From a virus (Duplodnaviria > Caudoviricetes): a DNA stretch of 29,878 nucleotides. The stretch is taken from positions 1 to 29,878 of IMG/VR virus record IMGVR_UViG_3300032221_000051. One strand, given 5' to 3'. The translations under genes were made by a program, and so were the position numbers. This document shows, piece after piece, positions 1,256-29,763 of this stretch (positions are counted from its first letter, which is position 1; each line of letters starts with the position of its first letter). The notes under the pieces were generated by a model that searched no databases, had not been told where the DNA came from, and saw only the letters and a list, made by a program, of their open reading frames with translations.

Positions 1256-1996
1256 CTATCCGATCATATCTGTGACAGGCAAGCTGTAAGTATAGATCAT
1301 TTCTTGCTCAAGCTTAGCGCGATCAGCAGAAGCTTCATCGTATATTCTTTGACCATTAAATACAAGACCACCTGGCATCTTCATACCATCAAACTTCTTA
1401 AGGTTCTGACCCCACTGTTGCTTAATCAAACACTCAGCATATAGTTGTAACCAGCGATCACCCCAAGCTTTATACCATACTTCTGGGTCGATGACCTCAT
1501 AAGCTTCTACAATAAGAAAATCTCCAACATTGACAAGATCCCAAGACATATCAAGAAACAGAATGTTCTGATGACGATTATATCTGATAGGCTGTTGCCC
1601 AATGAGAAGTTGCTCTAAGAACTGAATATGGCTAATAGCCATATAGTATGGTATCATAGAAACTGAAGTTAGTGTATACAGGTCGTTAAGAGCAATCTGA
1701 TACCGAATATTGAAAAGATTGTTTGCACCAATAACTTGGCCCAGAGGAAAGATACTTACTGCGCCGATAATATTGTCCGGAAGCTTGATGGCCCTGGCAT
1801 CGATGTTCTCTTGGGTAATCTGGTGCTTATAATACACTTTCTGAGAGCCATCGAAGTGATAATCCCAGTAATATCTCAGAGCCTCGTCAACACGATCATC
1901 TACCTGATCGTCATCCACATTGATCTCAATGACCGGCTTGCCTAGCTTTCTCAGGCAGTATTCTTTGAACTCTTCTCTGGTTGTAGGTACGGCCAT
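1256..1996 (-). CDS. gp13: T4-like neck protein gp13
   Basis: PTTREEFKEYCLRKLGKPVIEINVDDDQVDDRVDEAL...YHFDG, IKQQWGQNLKKFDGMKMPGGLVFNGQRIYDEA; AAGGAA SD upstream. Confidence 0.95.
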   Translation of the reverse strand: MAVPTTREEFKEYCLRKLGKPVIEINVDDDQVDDRVDEALRYYWDYHFDGSQKVYYKHQITQENIDARAIKLPDNIIGAVSIFPLGQVIGANNLFNIRYQIALNDLYTLTSVSMIPYYMAISHIQFLEQLLIGQQPIRYNRHQNILFLDMSWDLVNVGDFLIVEAYEVIDPEVWYKAWGDRWLQLYAECLIKQQWGQNLKKFDGMKMPGGLVFNGQRIYDEASADRAKLEQEMIYTYSLPVTDMIG

Positions 1997-2014
1997 GGAA
2001 TATTCCTTTTTGGA

Positions 2015-2022
2015 TATTTATA
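2015..2022 (-). promoter_or_regulatory. T4-type late promoter TATAAATA upstream of gp13
   Basis: Plus strand tatttata at 2015-2022 is TATAAATA on minus, the gp55-dependent late promoter consensus, in the intergenic gap about 18 nt upstream of the gp13 ATG. Confidence 0.8.
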
Positions 2023-2044
2023 CTATTCCACAGTCTCCATTTGA

Positions 2045-2662
2045 CTATACTCTGGCTGCAGTTAGAGCCACCTCATTACCCAGCTGGCCGCGAGGATACG
2101 TATTAAAAGCCAAGCTTATTCTGGTTTCTTTAGCTTCAACAACCTCAACTCGGTGCCTTAGACTAGACGGAAAAATGATTAACTCGTTGGTTCCTACAGG
2201 TAACTTCCAATTATCAGAGTTATACATATTGTACTCTGCTCTAGAGAAATCAAAAAGCATTATATCATTTTTAACAAAACAGATTTTATCTTTACTCTTA
2301 TCTGCATTTACGTAGAATACACCGGATAGAAAAGAGTTGCAGTGATAGTGCTCGTGATGGTACTCGCCAGGATCAGACCAATTTAACCATGACTGGGTTA
2401 GCTCTACCTTTAGGCTTGTATCACTTGGATTATGAATACTTATAAAGTATTCTTTGATAGATCTGTTTATAAACAAGGATAGATCTTTTAAAATAGGATT
2501 ATTTAGAATATACGTGTCTTTACTACTCTTATTTCCTCTGTTTGGTATCTGTTCAGCTGTCTTTAAAAAATTTAAAGTCTCTTCTGATAGCTTCTTTTCG
2601 TACTTAAAGAACATAACTGGAGTGGGAAATAAATGGTAAGTTTGAATATCAGGATTTTCCAT
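2045..2662 (-). CDS. 2OG-Fe(II) dioxygenase, TIGR02466-like family
   Basis: N-terminal LFPTPV; SWLN...YHHEHYHCNSFLSGVFYV (HxH metal ligands); LIIFPSSLRHRV (distal His); RISLAFN (2OG-binding Arg-x-Ser). GGAG SD lies in the P450 3' end, with a 14-nt overlap. Confidence 0.9.
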   Translation of the reverse strand: MENPDIQTYHLFPTPVMFFKYEKKLSEETLNFLKTAEQIPNRGNKSSKDTYILNNPILKDLSLFINRSIKEYFISIHNPSDTSLKVELTQSWLNWSDPGEYHHEHYHCNSFLSGVFYVNADKSKDKICFVKNDIMLFDFSRAEYNMYNSDNWKLPVGTNELIIFPSSLRHRVEVVEAKETRISLAFNTYPRGQLGNEVALTAARV

Positions 2663-3800
2663 AATCTCTCCGCATCATAATATTAGATATCATATCATCG
2701 TTGCCCGATGCAGTCATGATATATTTCAAATCAGAATTATTAGTTATTATCTCATACTTTCCTATCTTATCAAGCAAAATTTCTAGATAAGAACACAGTA
2801 TAGCCCTGGATACAGCAAGCGCAATGCACGCATGAACACCATGACCCCAGGCCAAAGAACCAGTAGTGTCTCTATATATATCAAACCTATCTGGGTTAGT
2901 AAACTTATTAGGGTCTCTATTCGCTGACTCCAAGCATGCAGCGACTCGATCTCCTGGCTTTAAATCGATACCATGCATAGTGATATCTTTTGTAACTGTT
3001 CTTGAAAATCTTCCAGTTGAAGCATGAAATCTAAGCGACTCATCGACTGCTTTTGGTATCAGTGATCTGTCGCTTAGTAATATATCTAATTGATTCTCTC
3101 TATATAGGTCAAGCGTTAGGAATTGCAGTGCTCCTATCATAGAGCTAGCACCTGAAATCATCGGCCCAACAATCAATGAGAACACGTCTAAGTTCTTTGG
3201 GTTATTGTTTATATAGTCATCATATATCCCAGGTCCAAGCGCAGGAACCTTTTGAGATATAGTTGAAATCAATATAGGGTAACTATTGTGCTGGCCCTTA
3301 ATCGAATCTTCTAGACGGGCTGATGGGCTTTTTCTCTGAGTATTAAGAACTATATTCTTAACTTGATCCTTATCTAATGGAAAATTAAGAAACTCAGCTA
3401 CCACCCAAGCACTTAGCTCTTCAGTTATATCTGATAAATCATACGTTGGCTTATCAGTAAAGTAATTATTTGCTTTCTCAGAAAACAATCCTGCTATTCT
3501 CTGTATATTATTCTTGTTGTAAGCATTTCTGACTATATTCTTATAATCATTATGGGTAGGATTATCGCTGGCACCAAGCGTATTGCCGAAGCGCTCAGGC
3601 TGCTCAACTATGAGATTGCCCTTAGCAGAAGAGAATATATCAGGATTATTAAGTATGAAGAATACATCTTCATATCTGGTCATAACATAAAGCTGATACT
3701 TTTCGCTATAATACGCAGAGCCTCTGTTTCTAAGCTCTGCGTACTTTTTAAACTTGCTTATCAGCCATTCGTTAGAATGCGGATCCCACATGCAGCTCAT
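2649..3800 (-). CDS. Cytochrome P450, bacterial soluble type
   Basis: N-terminal Y..LR...YVMTRYEDV..IL..PDIFSS; C-helix DNPTH; K-helix ExxR (VDESLRF); RTVTKDITMHGIDLKPGDRV; ANRDP..F..PDRFDI meander; heme loop LAWGHGVHACIA with the proximal Cys. Start is Met at 3800 or 3791. Confidence 0.95.
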   Translation of the reverse strand: MSCMWDPHSNEWLISKFKKYAELRNRGSAYYSEKYQLYVMTRYEDVFFILNNPDIFSSAKGNLIVEQPERFGNTLGASDNPTHNDYKNIVRNAYNKNNIQRIAGLFSEKANNYFTDKPTYDLSDITEELSAWVVAEFLNFPLDKDQVKNIVLNTQRKSPSARLEDSIKGQHNSYPILISTISQKVPALGPGIYDDYINNNPKNLDVFSLIVGPMISGASSMIGALQFLTLDLYRENQLDILLSDRSLIPKAVDESLRFHASTGRFSRTVTKDITMHGIDLKPGDRVAACLESANRDPNKFTNPDRFDIYRDTTGSLAWGHGVHACIALAVSRAILCSYLEILLDKIGKYEIITNNSDLKYIMTASGNDDMISNIMMRRDYGKS

Positions 3801-3815
3801 AATAAAAATTCTCTA

Positions 3816-4397
3816 TTACGCACCCATCATTGCTACAGAACCTACAGCGCCTTCAACGGCAATCTTAATTCTCCATATTATATCGTTCAGCAGCTTCTTA
3901 TCTTCTTCGCTTAGGCCTTCATTAGTACCATAGTTAAACGTCAGATGATCGATATTTCTTTTCTTAAAGAACTCTAAGAACTCATTAACATCTACGGTTG
4001 TGTTATTAACATCGCTCCATACGACGATCTTTCCGTCTTTTTCATGCATCTGCGCTTGAACGGCATGTTGAAACTCAAACAGAGTTTTAGCGTTTTGTTC
4101 TTCAGTTTCCGCTCGTATTTTCGATAGCTCAAGCTCTTCCGGCGTCTTATCTCTCCACGTATGAACATCAGTATAAGTCGGTGTTCCTAATTGTTTAGTT
4201 AGTTCTTCACTTAATTGATATTCTGTACTTAAAACAATCTGTGTATCACTTTCGTGAACATGGTTTCTTACAAATCTTGCAAACCCATCTGGTGGATTTT
4301 TAGGATCAAGACCCGGAAAATTTGCTGCCATGTTCCAATCAGCAAGAGGATGCTCAAAAGGTTTACCATCTTTAACTTGTATATAAAGTTCCATCAT
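3816..4397 (-). CDS. Hypothetical protein, possibly a tail-fibre-associated accessory or assembly factor
   Basis: 193-aa ORF with AAGGAG SD, packed between the Gly-rich adhesin and the P450. Function is inferred from position only. Confidence 0.7.
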   Translation of the reverse strand: MMELYIQVKDGKPFEHPLADWNMAANFPGLDPKNPPDGFARFVRNHVHESDTQIVLSTEYQLSEELTKQLGTPTYTDVHTWRDKTPEELELSKIRAETEEQNAKTLFEFQHAVQAQMHEKDGKIVVWSDVNNTTVDVNEFLEFFKKRNIDHLTFNYGTNEGLSEEDKKLLNDIIWRIKIAVEGAVGSVAMMGA

Positions 4398-4406
4398 AAA
4401 ACTCCT

Positions 4407-5105
4407 TTAGGTCCAAATAACAAACATATTTCCTGGTTGTCCTGGAGCTGCATTCTGTGGAGCCGCGCCGCCACCGCAACCAAATTGGAAATTAATAGTA
4501 GTACCAGGTATAGGTCTAACAGGATCAGTGTAATTAAAAGTGTAATTCATTTGGCCGCCAGCACCGCCAGCACCACCCCATGCGCCGCCTTGTTGTGGAG
4601 CACCACCTGCACCACCAGCTCCACCACCACCGGCAACTACTGAACCACCACCAGTTGAACTCGAACCGCCACCACCTGGCTGCACATTACCAGGAGCACT
4701 TCCAATACCACCAGGGCCGCCATCACCTTGAGCACTGAAGCCAGGGAATGTCATTACCGTAGCACCGCCTGGTGCACCATTATAACCATTATTACCGATG
4801 CCGTAGATGTTATGGTTGTCACCACCTCCACCTCCACCACCACCAGCATTCAGCGTAAAAGTTATTTGCGAATAGCCAGGCGTAAGAAATGTATAAGGCG
4901 TGCCACATCCATAGCCAGATGCAGGACTAAAGTTCGTATTGCCACCGAGTGACTTACCCCAGAAGTCAGAGTACCTGATCTGGCCTGAAGGAACAGTAGC
5001 TAAGTTTCTAGAATCAGTAGCATTGATGTCGAACTGCGCTATGCCGCCAGTTAGCAGCGTAATAATTTCAGACGCAGATATCTGCCCACTTAATGGTAAA
5101 ACCAT
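4407..5105 (-). CDS. Glycine-rich tail-fibre tip adhesin (gp38-like)
   Basis: N-terminal attachment-type motif LPLSGQISASEI...VPSGQIRYSDFWGKS, then multiple Gly-rich motifs (AGGGGGGGG, GGGGAGGAGG, GGAGGAGG). Directly downstream of an S74-chaperone fibre, matching the T2/S16 gp37-gp38 arrangement. Confidence 0.75.
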   Translation of the reverse strand: MVLPLSGQISASEIITLLTGGIAQFDINATDSRNLATVPSGQIRYSDFWGKSLGGNTNFSPASGYGCGTPYTFLTPGYSQITFTLNAGGGGGGGGDNHNIYGIGNNGYNGAPGGATVMTFPGFSAQGDGGPGGIGSAPGNVQPGGGGSSSTGGGSVVAGGGGAGGAGGAPQQGGAWGGAGGAGGQMNYTFNYTDPVRPIPGTTINFQFGCGGGAAPQNAAPGQPGNMFVIWT

Positions 5106-5107
5106 AA

Positions 5108-5956
5108 TTAACCCTCAACTTTGTCATGCAATTCATTGATAGCTTGAACTAATAAGGCAACGACGCGATCGTAGTGAAGTCCCTTGTATCCGTCTTCTCT
5201 CGTAGCAACGAGCTCAGGCATAACCTTCTCTACCTCGTTGGCAAGCAAGCCAGCTTCTCTCTTTCCTATTTCTTTACCACAAGCTTCAGAAGCAGCTTCG
5301 TTCCAAGTATACAGGTAGCCTTTAATCTTAGAAAGCTTCTCAAGAGCATTAGGAATAGGCTGAATGTTCTCTTTTAAGCGCTCATCAGAAGGCGAACCGT
5401 AGTAAGCCGTAATGTCGTTAGTTGCGATAATAGTTCCAGTAACACCAGATGCTGGAGTACCAACACCTAAGGAGTTGAACTGCGAATTCTGGTTAGTGCC
5501 AGTAAACACGTTAGCCGAATAAGCGTAGATAGCAATATCAGCAATGTTAGCGTATTGCGCTTGGTTCGCGAACAAAGAAAACGTTGCGTAGATGGCTGAG
5601 TTAACGTTTAGGTTAGAAGCAGCATAGCCATTCAAGAAGAGTGCGTTGTTTGCCTGACCAGCAAAGTCAGCGTAGTAAGCGTTTGTTGCATACACGGCAT
5701 TGGCTGCTAGACCAGCGTTTGCAGCGTATCCAGCATTTGCAGCGAAACCAGCAGTATCAGCGTAAACCGAATTTGTAATCTTACCGGTTATCAACGCAGA
5801 GAATGTTGAGAAGCCATTAACGCTAAGCTTCTGTGCCGGCGTTGCATCACCAAGACCCACGTTGCCTGCACTGGATATGTACAGGGTCGTACCGATCTGT
5901 GTTGTGTTGGTCTGACTTACTAGACCATTTTTTACCTGAAAAGCTTTATCTACCAT
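5108..5956 (-). CDS. Short distal tail-fibre protein with C-terminal intramolecular chaperone (peptidase S74)
   Basis: SDERLKENI autocleavage motif, then ALEKL..IKGY.Y.W, GLLANEVEKVMPELV and Y..VVALLVQAINEL; internal 6-aa AxY/FAxN repeats. Confidence 0.88.
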   Translation of the reverse strand: MVDKAFQVKNGLVSQTNTTQIGTTLYISSAGNVGLGDATPAQKLSVNGFSTFSALITGKITNSVYADTAGFAANAGYAANAGLAANAVYATNAYYADFAGQANNALFLNGYAASNLNVNSAIYATFSLFANQAQYANIADIAIYAYSANVFTGTNQNSQFNSLGVGTPASGVTGTIIATNDITAYYGSPSDERLKENIQPIPNALEKLSKIKGYLYTWNEAASEACGKEIGKREAGLLANEVEKVMPELVATREDGYKGLHYDRVVALLVQAINELHDKVEG

Positions 5957-5991
5957 GGTTCACTGTCCCCTATGGGTTGTTATTTTTTTAT

Positions 5992-5999
5992 TATTTATT
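5992..5999 (-). promoter_or_regulatory. Probable late promoter variant AATAAATA upstream of the fibre/adhesin/P450 cluster
   Basis: Plus strand tatttatt at 5992-5999 overlaps the stop of the 1496-aa gene, about 35 nt before the ATG at 5956. One mismatch to TATAAATA in an AT-rich gap. Confidence 0.5.
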
Positions 6000-8900
6000 A
6001 GGTTATTCCGTATCCACCAATAACGAACGTATTTGCACCAACACAAAGTATGGTAGCTAAACCATATTGAGCAAGCGTTCTACTTCCGGTATTAGCAGTT
6101 CCGGCAAGACGCATTGTTACGCCACCGTTCTGTGTAATCGTCTGGTTAGTAGCCGAATCGTTATAAACGTATACTACGTCACCAGCACTAAACACAGCAG
6201 CAGGAACATTAACACCGCCGGTCGTAATAGAGATGTGCTTACCAACATCCGCGGTAGTTAGCGAATAGTTTGTCGTCTGCGGGTTCTGAGGAATACCAAG
6301 ATAACCAACGTTCGATGCAGGTTTAGTTCCAACAAACGACGTATTGTTAGACGTCAGAGTAGCAACGTTTGAAGAAAGACCAGCGGTCGTCTGGTAGTTA
6401 GCTAAGTTGTTAGACAAGTTAGTTGTAGTAACGTAGTTAGCCAAGTTACCAGATAACTGAGCGTTAGATACAACATTAGCTGCAGATACAGTACCAACAA
6501 ACGCTGTATTGTTTGCTGTTACCGCTGCTGTTGCAGTACCCGTAAAGTTAGCAGCATATACCACATTGAACTGATTAGTTGTATTACCAATATCCTGAGT
6601 ACCAACGCCAGTAGCGTTCATATTACCGTTAACGGTTATATTATTAACGATGATATTCTGCCCGTTAGTGAACTGCGGCAATACGTTTGCTGTCCACTGG
6701 GCCGTACCGCCGTCGAAGGCAAATGTAACACCATTAGACGGAGCAAACAGGTTAGAAATAGCGCCATATAATCCTGAGAACGCGTTAGTATAAGCTGTCT
6801 GAGCGTAGTCAGCAGCGTACTGGATCGAGAGGTTGAACGCGTTGTTGGCATAAATGTTAGCCTGAGCGATAGCGTTTACGTACGCTTGATTACCAGCAGT
6901 CTGGGCATAAGCAGCAGATTGTGATTGCGAAGCATAGTTAGCAGTGGCAAGCTGCTGGTTGAGCGAGAACTGTGTAAGATAGTTAGCCAAATTGCCTTGC
7001 AACATTGCGTCTGATACAACGTTTGCAGCCAGCAACGTTCCGACATACTTAGCGCTATTAGCGGTTATCAGATACTGGTTAGCCAGGGTCTGCAACGCAT
7101 TAACAGTAGGCAACGTCATGCCATGTGATAATACCATAAGGTTTGAAGCTGCCTGGTATGTCATATTAAGAGCTGCGCCGCTTATATAGAAGCCAGCACC
7201 ATCGGCAGCAACTTCAGATACTGCACCATAAGCTATATCAAGAAGCTTATCTTTAATGCGTATCTCGTTAGTATTGATATACGCCAAGTTACCGCTTACA
7301 ATAAGGTCTCCGGCAACAGAAACATTACCAGTAAACGCAGCACCTGACAGAAGGGCAACGCCAGTAGAACTATTGACATATGCTTGTGATGCTACCCAAG
7401 CAAGAGCATTGCTGTAAGCAGAATTGGCAAGAATACCAGCTTGAGCAACCGCGTTGCTGTATGCTGTAGCAGATACTGCAATAGCATTATTATATGCTTG
7501 AGCCGCATAGGTCGTGGCCGTATTGGTTATACCAACAATAGCATTTGAGTAAGCGTTAGCAGCCAGCAAACTAGCTTGAGTGACAGCATTGCTATAAGCG
7601 TTGCCCGCGAGCAGGCCAGCTTGGTTAACTGCATTAGTATATGCAGCAGCAGACTGAAGTGTCGCAACACCAGCAGCATTAGTGTAGGCTGCAGTTGCAT
7701 TAGCTGTTACGTCACTGCCAAGAGCATAGCCAGAAGCAATAATACCATTAAGGTATAGAGCATTGTTAGCTGTGCCGACAATAGTCTGAGTAAACGTATG
7801 AGTGTTAGTCCAAGTGAACTGCGCAGCCGTATTAACCGAAGCGGCCGAAGGCGAAGTCCAGTAGATAGCAGTGCCGTTCGATGACAGAACGTCGCCTGGG
7901 TTACCAACAGTACCATTGCCTGTCAATGAACCAGTGACTGCTAAGTTCGAAACACTGATGCTTTGACCATTGGTAAAGCCGCCTGAAGCAGTGTTTGCCC
8001 AGTATACTTTAGCACCATCTGAAGTAAGTACTTGACCTGCGGTACCAACACCACCATTAGCAGTAACAGTATTAACAGTCAAGTCATTAACAGAAATGCT
8101 CTGGCCGTTAGTGAAGCTTGAAGAATGTGTTGTCCAATAAGTGTTAACGCCGTCTGAAGCCAGATATTGACCAGCAGTACCAACAGAACCATTTGAAGTA
8201 AAGCCACCGGTTAGAACAAATGCATTGACCGATATACTTTGGCCATTGACGAAACCGCCAGCACCAGTAGAAGACCAATAAACACTTGAACCATTAGAGG
8301 TTAGAACTTCGCCAGCTAAACCAAGAGCACCGTTGGCCGTAAAGTCACCAGTAACAGCGAACGCATTAACACTAATGCTCTGGCCGTTGACAAAACCACC
8401 GGATATGTTAGCACTGATACCGCCAGTAGCATTTGCAACAATGCTTACACCATCAACGATAACACCACCGAGAACAGTAGTATTTGCCACAGGAAGCGTA
8501 TAGAGAGCGTTAGCATAAGCAGCTGCAGCTTGAGCATCAACGTAACTTACATTAGCATACTCAACATTGCCTGAAGTCGTGATGCCACCAGTGCTATTAA
8601 CACTGAATGGAACAGCATCAAAGTAAATGGTATTAGCCGATACGTATAAGCTCTGCCATTTAGAAGTTGAGTTACCAAGAGAATGAGTATTGTCTGTTGC
8701 AGGAACAACGCTAGTAGCGACGCTCTGGAGGTTGATAGCTATACTATTAGCATAGGCCACGGCATTAGCGTAAGCCGTGGCAGCATCAGCAGCGGCAACA
8801 CCAGAAGCAAATGCTGTAGCATTAGTATACGCAGTGGCCGCATCAGAAGCTGATGTAACGGCAGCAGCCGCAACAGCATTGGCATAAGCCAGAGCAGCAT

Positions 8901-10488
8901 TGCCTGACCAAGCTATAGCATTAGTGTATGCAATCGCAGCGTCAGAAGCCGAGGTAATAGCAGCGGCAGCAACAGCATTAGCATATGCAGTACCGGCCTT
9001 AGTTGAGGCGTCAGTAGCAGCCGTAGCAACCGCATTAGAGTAAGCAGTCGCAGCATCAGAGGCCGAAGTAACTGCGGCAGCAGCAACAGCATTAGAATAA
9101 GCAGTGCCGGCTTTGGTTGAAGCATCGGTCGCAGCAGCAGCGATAGCATTAGAATAAGCCGTAGCAGCATCTGAAGCCGAAGTGATAGCAGCAGTAGCAA
9201 CAGCACTTGTGTATGCATTACTTGCTTTAGTTGTTGCATCGATGGATGCGGCAGCAACAGCATTAGCGTAAGCGTTGGCTGCCTTATTTGTAGCATCAAC
9301 CGCCGCAGCAGCAATAGCAGCTGACTGAGCGTTTGCAGCAATAAGAGTCGCTTGATTTACTGCATTAGTATAAGCGTTAGCGGCATAGAAGAATGCGATT
9401 CCATCAGCAGCAACTACAGCATTAGAATAAGCATTAGCTGCCTTATTAGTAGCATCCGAAGAAGCAACGGCAATAGCATTAGAATAGGCATTACCTACCT
9501 GGGCAACTGTTCCATAGTTAGCAAGGTTAGCCTGAAGCTGTGCATTTGATACAACGTTAACAGCGAATACGCCACCGACATGGACAACATCATTGGCAAC
9601 CAAACGAGCAACGTTATCTGCAAGATAAGCTTCTTGCTGATAGTTCTCAAGAATGGCATTCATCGCCGCTGTATTAGTATAGAGAACCAAATTAGCAGCA
9701 AGCTCGTTGGCATCTACAATAAGACTTGCAGGAACACCATCAACGAACAAGGCGTTGTTAGCGGTAAGACGAACGACGTTAGAAGCTAAACCAGAAAGAG
9801 AAGCGTAGAATGAAAGGTTAGCTTGAAGCTGAGCATTCGATACGACGTTAGTATTGTATACGCCACCAACATAGAGAGCATCGTTAGCAGTAAGACGAAC
9901 TACGTTCGATGACAGACCAGCAAGAGTAGCGTAATTAACCAAGTTGGCATTCAGAGCAGCATTAGAAACTACTTGAGATGAAGCCAAACCACCAATGAAG
10001 TTTGAGTTATTTGCAGTAAGGTTAAGAACATTAGCCGCTAACAAACCCGCCAATTGATAGTTGACAAGATTAGAAGACAGGTTAATGTTAGTAGGATAGT
10101 TAGCGAGGTTGCCCTGCAACTGAGCATTCGACACGACCAGGGGAGCAGCCAGACCGCCGATGTAGTTAGCAGAGTTAACAGTAAGAGGAGCAACGTTCGA
10201 AGCAACGCCTGTCAGCGTCAGATAGTTAGCCAAGTTAGCTTGGAGCTGAGCATTTGATACGACGTTAGAGGCACGAACAGAACCAACGAACGTTGTATTG
10301 TTTGCTGTAGCTTGAAGAACGTTAGCAGCTAAAGTATCATTTAGCTGTACAGTATAGCCACCCTGAATTGCGCCGTCCTGAACAACGAGCTCATGCGTCT
10401 CGTAGTTGACGACTACCTCGCCGTTTGCGCCGGTAAATGTCGCTATCTGAGCGGTATTACCTCTGCGGAACTGTACCTGAGTTGCCAT
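5998..10488 (-). CDS. Large repeat-rich tail fibre or virion filament with Mtd-like N-terminal domain
   Basis: N-terminus QVQFRRGNTAQIATFTGANGEVVVN....LVVQDG..QGG resembles the major tropism determinant N-terminal domain. Three internal repeat families; fibre motifs such as VPATDNTHSLGNSTSKWQSLY. Confidence 0.85.
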   Translation of the reverse strand: MATQVQFRRGNTAQIATFTGANGEVVVNYETHELVVQDGAIQGGYTVQLNDTLAANVLQATANNTTFVGSVRASNVVSNAQLQANLANYLTLTGVASNVAPLTVNSANYIGGLAAPLVVSNAQLQGNLANYPTNINLSSNLVNYQLAGLLAANVLNLTANNSNFIGGLASSQVVSNAALNANLVNYATLAGLSSNVVRLTANDALYVGGVYNTNVVSNAQLQANLSFYASLSGLASNVVRLTANNALFVDGVPASLIVDANELAANLVLYTNTAAMNAILENYQQEAYLADNVARLVANDVVHVGGVFAVNVVSNAQLQANLANYGTVAQVGNAYSNAIAVASSDATNKAANAYSNAVVAADGIAFFYAANAYTNAVNQATLIAANAQSAAIAAAAVDATNKAANAYANAVAAASIDATTKASNAYTSAVATAAITSASDAATAYSNAIAAAATDASTKAGTAYSNAVAAAAVTSASDAATAYSNAVATAATDASTKAGTAYANAVAAAAITSASDAAIAYTNAIAWSGNAALAYANAVAAAAVTSASDAATAYTNATAFASGVAAADAATAYANAVAYANSIAINLQSVATSVVPATDNTHSLGNSTSKWQSLYVSANTIYFDAVPFSVNSTGGITTSGNVEYANVSYVDAQAAAAYANALYTLPVANTTVLGGVIVDGVSIVANATGGISANISGGFVNGQSISVNAFAVTGDFTANGALGLAGEVLTSNGSSVYWSSTGAGGFVNGQSISVNAFVLTGGFTSNGSVGTAGQYLASDGVNTYWTTHSSSFTNGQSISVNDLTVNTVTANGGVGTAGQVLTSDGAKVYWANTASGGFTNGQSISVSNLAVTGSLTGNGTVGNPGDVLSSNGTAIYWTSPSAASVNTAAQFTWTNTHTFTQTIVGTANNALYLNGIIASGYALGSDVTANATAAYTNAAGVATLQSAAAYTNAVNQAGLLAGNAYSNAVTQASLLAANAYSNAIVGITNTATTYAAQAYNNAIAVSATAYSNAVAQAGILANSAYSNALAWVASQAYVNSSTGVALLSGAAFTGNVSVAGDLIVSGNLAYINTNEIRIKDKLLDIAYGAVSEVAADGAGFYISGAALNMTYQAASNLMVLSHGMTLPTVNALQTLANQYLITANSAKYVGTLLAANVVSDAMLQGNLANYLTQFSLNQQLATANYASQSQSAAYAQTAGNQAYVNAIAQANIYANNAFNLSIQYAADYAQTAYTNAFSGLYGAISNLFAPSNGVTFAFDGGTAQWTANVLPQFTNGQNIIVNNITVNGNMNATGVGTQDIGNTTNQFNVVYAANFTGTATAAVTANNTAFVGTVSAANVVSNAQLSGNLANYVTTTNLSNNLANYQTTAGLSSNVATLTSNNTSFVGTKPASNVGYLGIPQNPQTTNYSLTTADVGKHISITTGGVNVPAAVFSAGDVVYVYNDSATNQTITQNGGVTMRLAGTANTGSRTLAQYGLATILCVGANTFVIGGYGIT
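7850..8400 (-). repeat. Four ~46-aa repeats (F[VT]NGQSISV...NG..G..G..L.S.G...YW)
   Basis: Four copies of NGQSISV...YW in the translation of the large fibre. Confidence 0.85.
8740..9490 (-). repeat. Ala-rich 19/15-residue AY[ST]NA repeats (coiled-coil stalk)
   Basis: AYSNAIAAAATDASTKAGT and AYSNAVAAAAVTSASDAAT alternate with a 19-aa period. A second block of mostly 15-mers lies at about 7395-7690. Confidence 0.85.
9515..10335 (-). repeat. Six ~42-aa repeats (L.sNV..LtaN.a..vGg.....VVSNAQLqaNLanY) in the large fibre
   Basis: Visible in translation. Further copies occur near 6975-7070 and 6310-6525. Boundaries approximate. Confidence 0.85.
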
Positions 10489-27047: not shown

Positions 27048-28103
27048 TTACGTGAACGTTGATGGACCCAGCGGAGTGCCAGGTAATTGCCAAGTAGTAA
27101 CGCCACCGCCCTGAATCTTTGTAGACGAGCCTTGTATATTAACTTCACCACCAGATTTAATCTTAATACTACCAGATGAAATCTCTATGCTACTTCCGCC
27201 AACCTTAAGGGTTATCTTAGAGTCAGATGATATCATAAAGTCTTCACCGGCCTCAAACGTAGTTCCTTCCTTAGACCGAGTACGCAAGGATGTATCAGAG
27301 TTCAGACCCATCGACTTTTTAGAAGAAGCATCCCACGTATCATCAGTAGACAAAGACATAGCTTTTGAAGATGACGCGCTATAAGTATCTTTAGAAGCAA
27401 AAGACATCGCTTTCTTGGATGTACCGGTAAACGTGTCTCCACTGATATAGCGCTGAAACCCACTGCTATTTATTCGCGTGTCCTTGGATACGTTAACGTC
27501 CCAGCTGCCTCCTTGGGCATCAACTCCAATATCACCTTCCTTAGAGATGATGAAGTGGTTTCCGCCCTTCATCATTGTCACGTTATCTTTTGCGTATGAT
27601 GTATGAACGTGGTCCTCGTACATCGTGCCGGTCTTGGCATTTACTACCGAGTACTTGGTTCCCTGTGTCTGCTGGTTATAGCTGAGTTCAGAGCCGCCGA
27701 CACCGAACATCTTGTTCTGACCGACACCGTGATACTGGTTAGAAGGAGTAGCAAAACCATGGTCTCCGCCCGCCTGCTCCAGCTTACACTTCTCAGCATC
27801 ATTGTGATACTGGCCATCATGATGTGTACACTTACTCTTATTAGTGTATTCTCTAACGCCACCTACGTGTAGATCAACGTTAAAACCTTTTTCATCTTGG
27901 TCATAACTACGAAACTTATAAGTTCCATGAGCAGACAATGTCTGGTGGATGTAGTTCTCTTTATCATTAGGATTGGCATACATCAATGAATGCCCACCTA
28001 AATGGTTTGCTTCGCCGAACCACCATCCTTGCTTTGGTTCTACTTTACCATCGCTGATAGGATCTTTAGGAGACTTCTTATTCTTATCCCATTTAGCTGC
28101 CAT
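27048..28103 (-). CDS. gp5-like baseplate spike, C-terminal beta-helix portion encoded as a separate ORF
   Basis: Likely start MAAKW at 28103 (GGAG SD, 1 nt after the upstream stop) rather than 28136. Short beta-strand repeats (SKKAMSFASKDTYSASSSKAMSLSTDDTWDASSKKSMGL) and a VgrG/gp5-like end ITLKVGGSSIEISSGSIKIKS; immediately before gp25. Confidence 0.72.
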   Translation of the reverse strand: MAAKWDKNKKSPKDPISDGKVEPKQGWWFGEANHLGGHSLMYANPNDKENYIHQTLSAHGTYKFRSYDQDEKGFNVDLHVGGVREYTNKSKCTHHDGQYHNDAEKCKLEQAGGDHGFATPSNQYHGVGQNKMFGVGGSELSYNQQTQGTKYSVVNAKTGTMYEDHVHTSYAKDNVTMMKGGNHFIISKEGDIGVDAQGGSWDVNVSKDTRINSSGFQRYISGDTFTGTSKKAMSFASKDTYSASSSKAMSLSTDDTWDASSKKSMGLNSDTSLRTRSKEGTTFEAGEDFMISSDSKITLKVGGSSIEISSGSIKIKSGGEVNIQGSSTKIQGGGVTTWQLPGTPLGPSTFT

Positions 28104-28104
28104 A

Positions 28105-29763
28105 TTACGCTCCGCTACTCGTGCTATTAGCTCCAAGCGCTGACATCAGGCCTGATACGTTCTTGTTAGTTTGAACAGTATTATAAGTGTTACCGGCATA
28201 TGTTCCAGTTGTATTACCAGTACTTTGAGGAGCATTATAATTACCACCAGAGCCTTGGTTACCACCACCACCGCCGCCTTGATTACCACCACCTCCTCCA
28301 CCACCGCCTTTATTACCAAACTTGCTAAGCATTCCAGTAATATTATTAATTCCACCGAGGTTCATAAACTGATTAGAACCGAATGCACCATTAGCTATAT
28401 TCTGTATTTTGCCAAGTGGACCCATATTCTTGGTAAAGTCTTGGTTTGTCTTCATAGCTTTTTCCATGTCCAATACCGACTTGCTTTCGTTATTAGCTAA
28501 GTCGTTTTGCTGAAACTTCTGAAGCATCTGCTGTAATAATTGGATGAACTGTTGCATATTACTATTATTGCCGCCATTGTTTCCAGAGCCTTTACCAAGA
28601 GCATTATCTTGTCCTCTGGTTTGGACAGCTACAGTAGTAGTTCCTAATATAGCATCAAGAATAGCTGCAGTAAGAGTGCGCTGAATAAAATATGGTTCAA
28701 GTTGAGCAGACAAACTTAATGTAGCAGTTCCTAATATCTCTTCAGTTGCTGATGAATAGAAGTAGTTGTCTTTAGCTGCATTTCTAACCCAGACAGTCTT
28801 AGCCGTATTTTTTGCAGCTAGATTTTCTTGAATAGCCGTATTAGCATAGTAGTATTCTGGTGGTTGTGCATTATACTGTGTCCAACCAGGATAAGGATCT
28901 GTATTAGGATTATTATAATACACTCTATAATAAGAGTCTGGAATACTTGCGTAATTGGGCAATGGATATGGAGGTATTCTATCTGTGTAATCGATACTCT
29001 CAAACTTATATAAAGCTAAAGTATCCGGGCCATATGTTACAGCGTTATCTAAAAGCAATGCTACTGCATTCTTAGTAACTACTTGATTGGCTGGCGACAT
29101 TACGTTAATATACGTCCCGCGTAATGCGTTGAACAATACTTCAATTACCAATGGAAAACCAAGTTTAGCGGCCAAATAACAAAACGCATTACCTAATGCA
29201 TTTGTTACAGTATCATTGTTAGTTCCTAAAGTGTAGTCAGAACCGCCACTTCCACCACCGCCGCCGCCTCCGCCGCCTCCATATCCTCCACCGCCGCCGC
29301 CACCGCCGCCAGAGAAGTTTAATATATCGCGAACTTGTTGAAGCTTCTGAAACATCTGTGGAAGCTTCTGCATCTGTTTATCTGGGTCAACTTTCTGATC
29401 TAATTCAGGAAGCTTAGTCATGTCGTTGTCAGCAGCAATAGTAGGCACGTCTTTCTTAGGTGCAAACATATCATTAACATCCGACATCTTCATCGCACTG
29501 TCAGACATTACCGCTGGAGGATTACCAAACTTGATATCATCTTTCGCACTTATCTTTGGAGCTTCGCCCTGAAGTGCTAACAGATTATTGTAGATGGTTT
29601 TCCCTTCGTCGAGCATAGGAATGCCATCGCCACCACCACCAGACTGGTCTACTTGCCCTTCTTTAGTGCTGCTATTTCCAGGATTGTCGATGCCAGGATG
29701 ATCAATTTTATCGCCGCCTGATTGCTGGTCAGGTTGCCTCTTTACGCCGTCTTGTGTTGCCAT
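28105..29763 (-). CDS. Hypothetical Gly/Gln/Asn-rich protein in the gp5 locus
   Basis: 552-aa ORF coupled to both neighbours, with two long poly-Gly tracts; no catalytic motif recognised. Confidence 0.75.
   Translation of the reverse strand: MATQDGVKRQPDQQSGGDKIDHPGIDNPGNSSTKEGQVDQSGGGGDGIPMLDEGKTIYNNLLALQGEAPKISAKDDIKFGNPPAVMSDSAMKMSDVNDMFAPKKDVPTIAADNDMTKLPELDQKVDPDKQMQKLPQMFQKLQQVRDILNFSGGGGGGGGGYGGGGGGGGGGSGGSDYTLGTNNDTVTNALGNAFCYLAAKLGFPLVIEVLFNALRGTYINVMSPANQVVTKNAVALLLDNAVTYGPDTLALYKFESIDYTDRIPPYPLPNYASIPDSYYRVYYNNPNTDPYPGWTQYNAQPPEYYYANTAIQENLAAKNTAKTVWVRNAAKDNYFYSSATEEILGTATLSLSAQLEPYFIQRTLTAAILDAILGTTTVAVQTRGQDNALGKGSGNNGGNNSNMQQFIQLLQQMLQKFQQNDLANNESKSVLDMEKAMKTNQDFTKNMGPLGKIQNIANGAFGSNQFMNLGGINNITGMLSKFGNKGGGGGGGGNQGGGGGGNQGSGGNYNAPQSTGNTTGTYAGNTYNTVQTNKNVSGLMSALGANSTSSGA

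Follow-up and report, generated by a model that had tools for sequence, protein, structure and literature searches.

What do the oxygenases that phages encode beside their tail-fibre genes act on? In uncultured phages their substrates are not known, and the question is posed in a particularly compact form by a stretch of 29,878 nucleotides (nt), hereafter the window, from the IMG/VR virus record IMGVR_UViG_3300032221_000051, which comes from a T4-like phage and extends from its baseplate genes to its neck genes (the record is 18% complete). Five consecutive genes of the window encode an S74 short fibre protein, a glycine-rich protein predicted to be a fibre-tip adhesin, a protein of 193 amino acids (aa) that is probably a fibre-assembly chaperone, a cytochrome P450 and a 2-oxoglutarate (2OG)-Fe(II) oxygenase (Table 1). 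A sequence-only reading had suggested that they form one candidate fibre-tailoring system with two different oxygenases. We found instead that the conserved unit consists of three genes, not five: the Gly-rich adhesin, the probable chaperone and the P450. The explanation that we favour, with a probability of roughly 40%, is that the P450 takes part in the maturation of the adhesin, either directly or via a small acid.

A P450 behind one type of adhesin loop

With the exception of locus L038, all P450-linked adhesins carry the motif DNHN[IA]YG in a loop that we call loop 1. A DNA pattern for this motif, designed from the neighbours of the P450 genes, was run over 2.9 million IMG/VR contigs; a scan with an adhesin alignment confirmed nothing, and the DNA motif was used in its place. 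The 13 matches obtained comprised two chance hits and 11 adhesins, which represent seven lineages plus the window. In 11/11 of these adhesins the chaperone gene followed and then the P450 gene, which thus lay two genes downstream of the motif, a co-occurrence tighter than the adjacency noted in the sequence-only reading would imply. Motif matches in L048, L049 and L260 were dropped as unrelated or out of frame. The same scan in metagenomes returned 92 matches, of which 83 were chance and nine were adhesins, none of them clearly from a new lineage. Seven of the nine were accompanied by a P450, one by an adenylating enzyme and one was cut short; among the metagenome loci long enough to tell, the P450 was present in 7/7, apparently in the same lineages as in IMG/VR. 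A scan with the N-terminal domain of the adhesin yielded no new lineage, and none of 55 further, distinct loci with a member of the chaperone family had the P450 within the available flank, up to 6 kb.

The module occupies four different genomic positions: before gp13, between gp15 and the small terminase gene, before a gene for a 113-aa protein, and in a non-structural region without an S74 gene. The S74 fibre is therefore a usual but non-obligatory upstream partner, missing in L002. There the module is placed before ferritin-like, deaminase and Dam genes, and its P450 (L002:2572-3870) has 432 aa, being about 50 residues longer at the C-terminus.

Besides loop 1, two other adhesin loops (PQQG and APQNA) are invariant in the eight motif-bearing adhesins. 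The 16 positions of the three loops, which were picked because they looked conserved, showed 97% identity across the eight linked adhesins, compared to 34% at 155 other non-Gly positions and to 21% at the identical loop columns of five enzyme-free adhesin relatives. Among clusters of adhesin homologues, taken without gene context, the loop was present in 10/53 and different in 43/53. The scaffolds of the linked adhesins diverge to 25% identity at non-Gly positions.

Three relatives differ in loop or enzyme. In G001, a genome 94% complete, the slot is taken by an adhesin with a different loop, and a P450 is missing. In L052, loop 1 reads DNHNGPYG and an adenylating enzyme takes the place of the P450. 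L038 combines other loops with a stand-alone chaperone C-terminal domain, an adenylating enzyme and a P450, whose branch is three times as long as that of its sister and shows changes in the substrate-recognition regions, although this is one case. The enzymes of L052 (6533-8098) and L038 (3078-4529) are AMP-binding adenylating enzymes, 53% identical to each other, both encoded behind adhesin and chaperone. When IMG/VR was scanned for this enzyme, only three loci were found, belonging to two lineages.

The 193-aa protein belongs to a family encoded behind a Gly-rich open reading frame (ORF) in 73/77 loci. Tfa-like fibre chaperones (Pam3 gp25, Phage_tail_APC), which combine a binding domain at the N-terminus with a helical one at the C-terminus, likewise have their genes behind that of the fibre tip. 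It gave weak Atlas matches to tail-chaperone clusters, with template modelling (TM) scores of 0.5 or less, and no sequence match in PDB. Its C-terminal helical part (about 3840-4055 in the window) was found, among the loci collected here, only in enzyme-bearing modules: a profile of this domain scored 65 bits with the held-out L052, 32 bits with L038 and 9 or less with other loci. This test was confined to the collected loci, the domain alignment being too variable for a database scan, and the domain could equally be a cap for this type of loop. Comparison of adhesin and chaperone by HHalign was uninformative.

As to the adhesin itself, 27% of its 232 residues are Gly. A structural model built from nine sequences, with a mean predicted local distance difference test (pLDDT) score of 72, comprises a beta-sandwich and a glycine-rich domain. 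The top VIA matches among 48,161 chains were the Bxb1 tail-tip chain 9d93_Qa (Z 8.3, root-mean-square deviation (rmsd) 3.4, 134 aligned residues) and the Pam3 fibre 7ypx (Z 7.8, rmsd 3.1, 121 aligned), the next having a Z of 6.4; both are borderline and near the chance range. Foldseek with the same model gave no match at E 0.001. The sequence-only reading had called the protein gp38-like. Adhesins of the gp38 type sit as monomers on gp37 and are built of attachment, beta-helix and polyglycine sandwich domains. A Gly-rich predicted tip stands, but the resemblance, itself borderline, is to Pam3 gp24 and Bxb1. The window adhesin had no Pfam or PHROG match to the gp38 family, and the gp38 structure 6F45 was not among the 50 VIA matches listed, which does not exclude gp38. 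On these grounds the labels adhesin and chaperone are likely.

Pam3 gp24 and Bxb1 stand for tip proteins with a TNF-like beta-sandwich into which a glycine-rich bundle is inserted. With Pam3 gp24/gp25 (7YPX; PMC9608196) and the Bxb1 chain (9D93, Qa), the modelled adhesin appears to share N-terminal helices, a beta-sandwich, a glycine-rich domain and distal loops, and in Pam3 a two-domain, chaperone-sized gene likewise comes next after the tip gene. The Pam3 tip, however, is described as hypervariable, whereas loops of the window type are near-invariant, and the excerpts of PMC9608196 describe no linked enzyme. Similarly, the gp37-gp38 pair of T2 and S16 has a small, separate Gly-rich gene right after the fibre gene, with Gly-rich motifs broken by loops, which in gp38 are the hypervariable segments of host recognition (PMC12032242). 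Here, in contrast, the loops are conserved, and a chaperone and enzymes follow.

A viral P450 clade and its contexts

The P450 shows both the heme motif (W318-G-H-G-V-H-A-C325) and the ExxR motif (E254-S-L-R257), and its heme Cys, Glu and Arg were invariant in 116/116 aligned homologues; 115 of the 116 have Ala in place of the usual Gly two residues after the heme Cys. The model (pLDDT 92.8) resembles solved P450s with TM scores of 0.80-0.85. In the I-helix, which reads SGASS, the canonical acid-alcohol pair (D/E followed by T/S) is missing: all 116 homologues have S, G or A at position 219, the acid is absent and Ser220 is invariant. This combination suggests, as far as sequence comparison can tell, an unusual proton delivery in the clade. 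The N-terminus has no signal or membrane segment. The ratio of non-synonymous to synonymous substitution rates was 0.05-0.14 in three pairs of relatives (the window allele was not among them), as expected under purifying selection.

Homologues amounted to 271 matches, the best 120 of them at 53% identity or more, with zero among 50,697 GenBank phage records. When 185,579 GTDB genomes were scanned with a pattern as seed, the P450s at the 27 loci obtained were all distant, with 23-26% identity (32-35% on two short pieces). The nearest Atlas cluster is 79% viral. The clade thus occurs in viral contigs and is absent from the GTDB scan. P450s have been reported from giant viruses, Ranid herpesvirus 3 and Mycobacterium phage Adler, which resemble ours in having no redox partner of their own nearby (PMC9405906), but here we deal with a large clade without GenBank phage members. 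Among the papers listed by a literature search on P450s with phages and viruses and on virion modification, none on a P450-adhesin link or on this clade appeared, although supplements of viral-metagenome papers may list such genes; the P450 passage of PMC12607003 is unrelated. The clade and its tie to one type of adhesin loop may be new; the component parts are of known kinds.

The nearest solved structure was P450-T2 (CYP203A, PDB 8FBC; E 5e-42, the next at 7e-26; TM 0.85), with 24-25% identity over the structural alignment. Since naming of a CYP family requires at least 40% identity, the window enzyme is not a CYP203 member but has a similar scaffold. Both share the B/C-loop pattern GNL...R.G.TLG.SD.P.H, a Ser at the alcohol position and Arg-Phe after ExxR. 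The window clade differs by the absence of the acid (116/116), a Gly-Pro in the I-helix and a shorter G-to-I region, and by its viral origin, behind a tail gene. The CYP203A subfamily, which includes CYP203A1 of Rhodopseudomonas palustris, is reported to bind small aromatics (PMC7780096). Another enzyme for comparison is the biarylitide P450Blt, which also has Ser at the alcohol position and links Tyr and His, the residues proposed here as partners; it keeps and needs Glu238, and its substrate is a free five-residue Tyr-x-His peptide (PMC12002111), whereas the window P450 lacks the Glu and the candidate motif, His-x-x-Tyr, lies inside the adhesin protein. Biarylitide P450s were absent among the best 60 solved relatives listed, and no small precursor gene for an aromatic-x-aromatic core adjoins the P450 gene: the 15 nt before it hold no start-to-stop ORF.

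An alignment scan of IMG/VR, where a single-protein query had given no viral locus, identified 43 P450 loci. By our own assignment of classes, and with many of the loci being near-duplicates, 13 lay behind a Gly-rich gene, 12 near an RNase H gene and one elsewhere, while the other 17 belonged to the enzyme islands of very large phages or to their vicinity; the islands encode desaturases, FabD, TctC and radical S-adenosylmethionine (SAM) enzymes. In a tree of 27 viral and three cellular rows (L037 missing), adhesin-linked and RNase H-linked P450s formed one clade (99/100). The prospect raised earlier, that P450s in random genomic contexts would speak against a tailoring function, has thus partly materialised, with 30/43 loci outside an adhesin context; the other 13 show the association.

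Several features of these loci were recorded in passing. The islands of L011, L029-L037, L039 and L043 also encode a fatty-acid hydroxylase, a B12 radical SAM enzyme and unnamed proteins of 300-430 aa, with cupin-like proteins of 180-220 aa and repeated unnamed proteins of 100-106 aa flanking the P450. The P450s near RNase H (L015-L024, L040, L042) form a derived clade (100/99), away from tail genes, with changes of their own in the I-helix and the C-terminal substrate site. L044 (2-583) holds a partial P450 of the clade (44%) on a contig with a SU10-type adaptor gene, hence a different type of phage.

The 2OG oxygenase and the borders of the block

The 2OG enzyme scored 66.5 bits with TIGR02466 (cut-off 62.5) and 76 bits with PF13759 (cut-off 27). 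Its ligand candidates, chosen by conservation, are His105-x-His107...His170, an HxH...H pattern as in 3BVC and 2RG4 rather than the canonical HxD/E...H; an RxS motif (Arg181-x-Ser183) is present. Within the best 80 of 525 2OG loci, to which the context counts refer, proximity to Gly-rich genes was found: such a gene lay within three genes upstream in 56/61 distinct close relatives, as against 0/256 ORFs in 14 island and replication loci used as a control. As 51 of the 61 relatives belong to one cluster at 70% identity, this association mostly reflects one lineage. Of the PF13759 copies examined in related T4-like and jumbo genomes, 0/11 stood behind a Gly-rich gene.

That the P450 and the 2OG enzyme would act jointly, as obligatory parts of a single pathway that modifies fibre or adhesin, agrees with the tight spacing of the genes, with the occurrence of each enzyme family separately behind Gly-rich genes and with L041, where the P450 lies between two distant 2OG genes. 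The 2OG gene, however, came next in 0/11 of the other adhesin-P450 cassettes with that gene visible, no P450 of this clade was found within 3 kb of any of the best 80 2OG loci, G009 has the cassette with its 48%-identical 2OG gene about 59 kb away and not behind a Gly-rich gene, and in G001 the 2OG gene is present in five copies although the genome lacks a P450. The co-occurrence counts have already largely refuted the proposed five-gene system, which we consider very improbable. The 2OG enzyme of the window is an add-on in this phage, outside the conserved P450 module. Oxygenases of this kind are common and mobile, and they are often found in the company of adhesins, independently of the P450. 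In one phage group (L262-L341) the order is Gly-rich gene, 80-aa gene, 2OG oxygenase and a conserved 120-aa gene (42/60), which looks chaperone-like by eye. In the T4-like relatives L343 and L346, 2OG copies are interleaved in sugar-modification islands (labels by eye).

Coordinates confirmed the five ORFs, their gaps of 2, 9 and 15 nt and one 14-nt overlap, and the three named families were borne out (PF13884, E 6e-17, an intramolecular chaperone at residues 190-250 of the S74 protein, which also matches tail-fibre PHROGs; PF00067; PF13759/TIGR02466). The block lies between a gene for a 1496-aa fibre-like protein, upstream, and gp13/gp14, downstream. Three exact copies of TATAAATA, which we take to be the T4 late-promoter consensus, occur in the window, every one 19-70 nt ahead of a start codon, and one of them is the separate site noted for gp13. 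At the start of the block, AATAAATA is present as claimed but provides weak evidence, because it has one mismatch, sits over the stop codon of the upstream gene and belongs to a class rarer than chance (46 observed one-mismatch sites in the window, 68 expected). A search of the coding strand in 1800-6300 revealed no terminator-like site, so a closed unit is not demonstrated, and scans for sigma-70 promoters and terminators gave only chance-level results. We therefore regard the block as belonging to a late run of genes on the same strand, and not as a demonstrated unit.

Table 1 Features of the locus, with positions in the window
Feature	Position	Strand	Basis
S74 short fibre protein, 282 aa	5108-5956	-	PF13884, C-terminal
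Glycine-rich protein, predicted fibre-tip adhesin, 232 aa	4407-5105	-	Structure model, neighbours
Adhesin loop 1, DNHNIYG, residues 96-102	4800-4820	-	His and Tyr proposed targets
Adhesin loop PQQG, residues 170-173	4587-4598	-	Invariant in 8 motif-bearing adhesins
Adhesin loop APQNA, residues 215-219	4449-4463	-	Invariant in 8 motif-bearing adhesins
193-aa protein, probable fibre-assembly chaperone	3816-4397	-	Position after Gly-rich ORF
Cytochrome P450, 383 aa, intact	2649-3800	-	PF00067, E 2e-12
TIGR02466-type 2OG-Fe(II) oxygenase, 205 aa	2045-2662	-	PF13759/TIGR02466
AATAAATA, candidate late promoter, indistinguishable from chance	5992-5999	-	Motif count
TATAAATA, late-promoter consensus before gp13	2015-2022	-	Exact match

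The 1496-aa protein (5998-10488) is Ala/Asn-rich, repetitive and has an Mtd_N start; its 'ANNA/YAN'-type repeats recur in the S74 protein. Two ORFs of the baseplate region without PHROG match encode a 552-aa protein with long Gly runs (28105-29763) and a 362-aa protein with a DUF2345 match (27048-28136). One contig of sequencing run X1, possibly the source of the window itself, covered 1353-7000 with zero differences. A related contig of run X2 matched at 85% identity on both sides of 4200-4535 but not in that interval, which spans the start of the chaperone and the end of the adhesin and may be a variant tip.

What the P450 may act on

Maturation of the adhesin would work as follows. Predicted tip adhesin, probable chaperone and P450 travel as a mobile three-gene module; during late assembly, the P450 would oxidise the unchanging tip loop, or else a small acid that is then attached to the loop. 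Host redox partners would supply the electrons, a source that has also been proposed for other P450s of viruses (PMC9405906). The 2OG enzyme would have been acquired separately and may act on the same adhesin, without being needed alongside the P450. This explanation is favoured because a late cytoplasmic enzyme would meet the nascent adhesin, because frozen loops occur only together with the enzyme, and because enzyme swaps coincide with loop changes. It also agrees with the finding of a 2OG oxygenase in the slot behind the chaperone at 18/55 control loci. A more specific version, which we regard as unlikely, holds that a phage-only P450 cross-links or hydroxylates His and Tyr in the tip loop, with the chaperone C-terminal domain as adaptor, in a chemistry on the virion like that of ribosomally synthesised and post-translationally modified peptides; exchangeable enzymes (P450, adenylating enzyme, 2OG oxygenase) would each complete one kind of adhesin, and host range would thereby be set by chemistry.

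Several observations weigh against adhesin maturation. L052 keeps two of the three loops without a P450, and L038 lacks the motif yet retains its P450; the ligands reported for CYP203A, the closest characterised family, are small aromatics; and 17 of the 18 2OG genes found behind the chaperone in the 55 control loci are of one subfamily, unlike the 2OG of the window. The adhesin is absent at 30/43 P450 loci, and in the tree the P450s linked to adhesins are embedded in the diversity of the island enzymes. The complete jumbo-phage genome G006 (349 kb, 100% complete) encodes a P450 61% identical to that of the window, with nearly matching substrate-recognition segments, and has no adhesin or chaperone of these families and no HN[IA]YG; Gly-rich proteins near its four PF21722 matches lack the loops. 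A near-identical pocket has thus been kept without the loop. Finally, a supposed incongruence between P450 and adhesin trees was dropped because the key group was not rejected in the approximately unbiased (AU) test; with co-descent of P450 and adhesin scaffold not rejected (p-AU 0.08), the eight linked lineages may be one event.

The same data bear on a reading in which the P450 is a host-linked passenger. The loops would choose the host, the P450 would oxidise a small metabolite useful only there, and the genes would have been acquired together, as a block placed last in the tail-fibre cassette, with no mutual chemistry. Persistence of the P450 clade away from adhesins, a single origin of the block (not rejected by the AU test), the near-matching active sites of window and jumbo phage, and a slot behind the chaperone that accepts many different genes are all compatible with it. 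Yet adjacency outlived both relocation to four positions and divergence of the scaffold; a P450 clade (clade C) shows that the enzyme can move away, but it was lost in 0/11 motif-bearing adhesins; and the loops are near-invariant where those of relatives are hypervariable. We judge a mere passenger to be possible, if somewhat unlikely.

Alternatively, the chemistry could be on the side of the receptor. In T5 and BF23, the receptor-binding gene oad (hrs) has an adjacent, specificity-matched gene, llp (PMC4728585). In a similar manner, the P450 or the adenylating enzyme would alter a small precursor, aromatic or carboxylic, from which the host makes the surface structure bound by the adhesin, blocking superinfection or the loss of progeny on debris. 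This would account for co-variation with the receptor loops without a protein substrate, and it fits the CYP203A-like B/C loop and Arg264, the replacement of the P450 by an enzyme that activates acids and, in the islands, the vicinity of genes like those for desaturases, FabD and TctC. But Llp is a receptor-blocking lipoprotein and no enzyme (PMC4728585), whereas the partner here is a predicted soluble oxygenase, and a P450 without signal or membrane segment, made late in infection, would presumably reach only newly made envelope. Action on the receptor side is in our view unlikely, though, like the passenger reading, not far behind maturation of the adhesin.

Maturation of the adhesin, for its part, ties one enzyme to one seven-residue loop, for which L052, L038, L072 and L091 provide natural controls, and a chemical finishing of receptor-binding tips by phages can thereby be put to the test by mass spectrometry. 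If it is false, what is left is a large viral clade of P450s, so far unstudied, without the usual acid residue; if it is true, host range would hinge on a modification made after translation and invisible in sequence.

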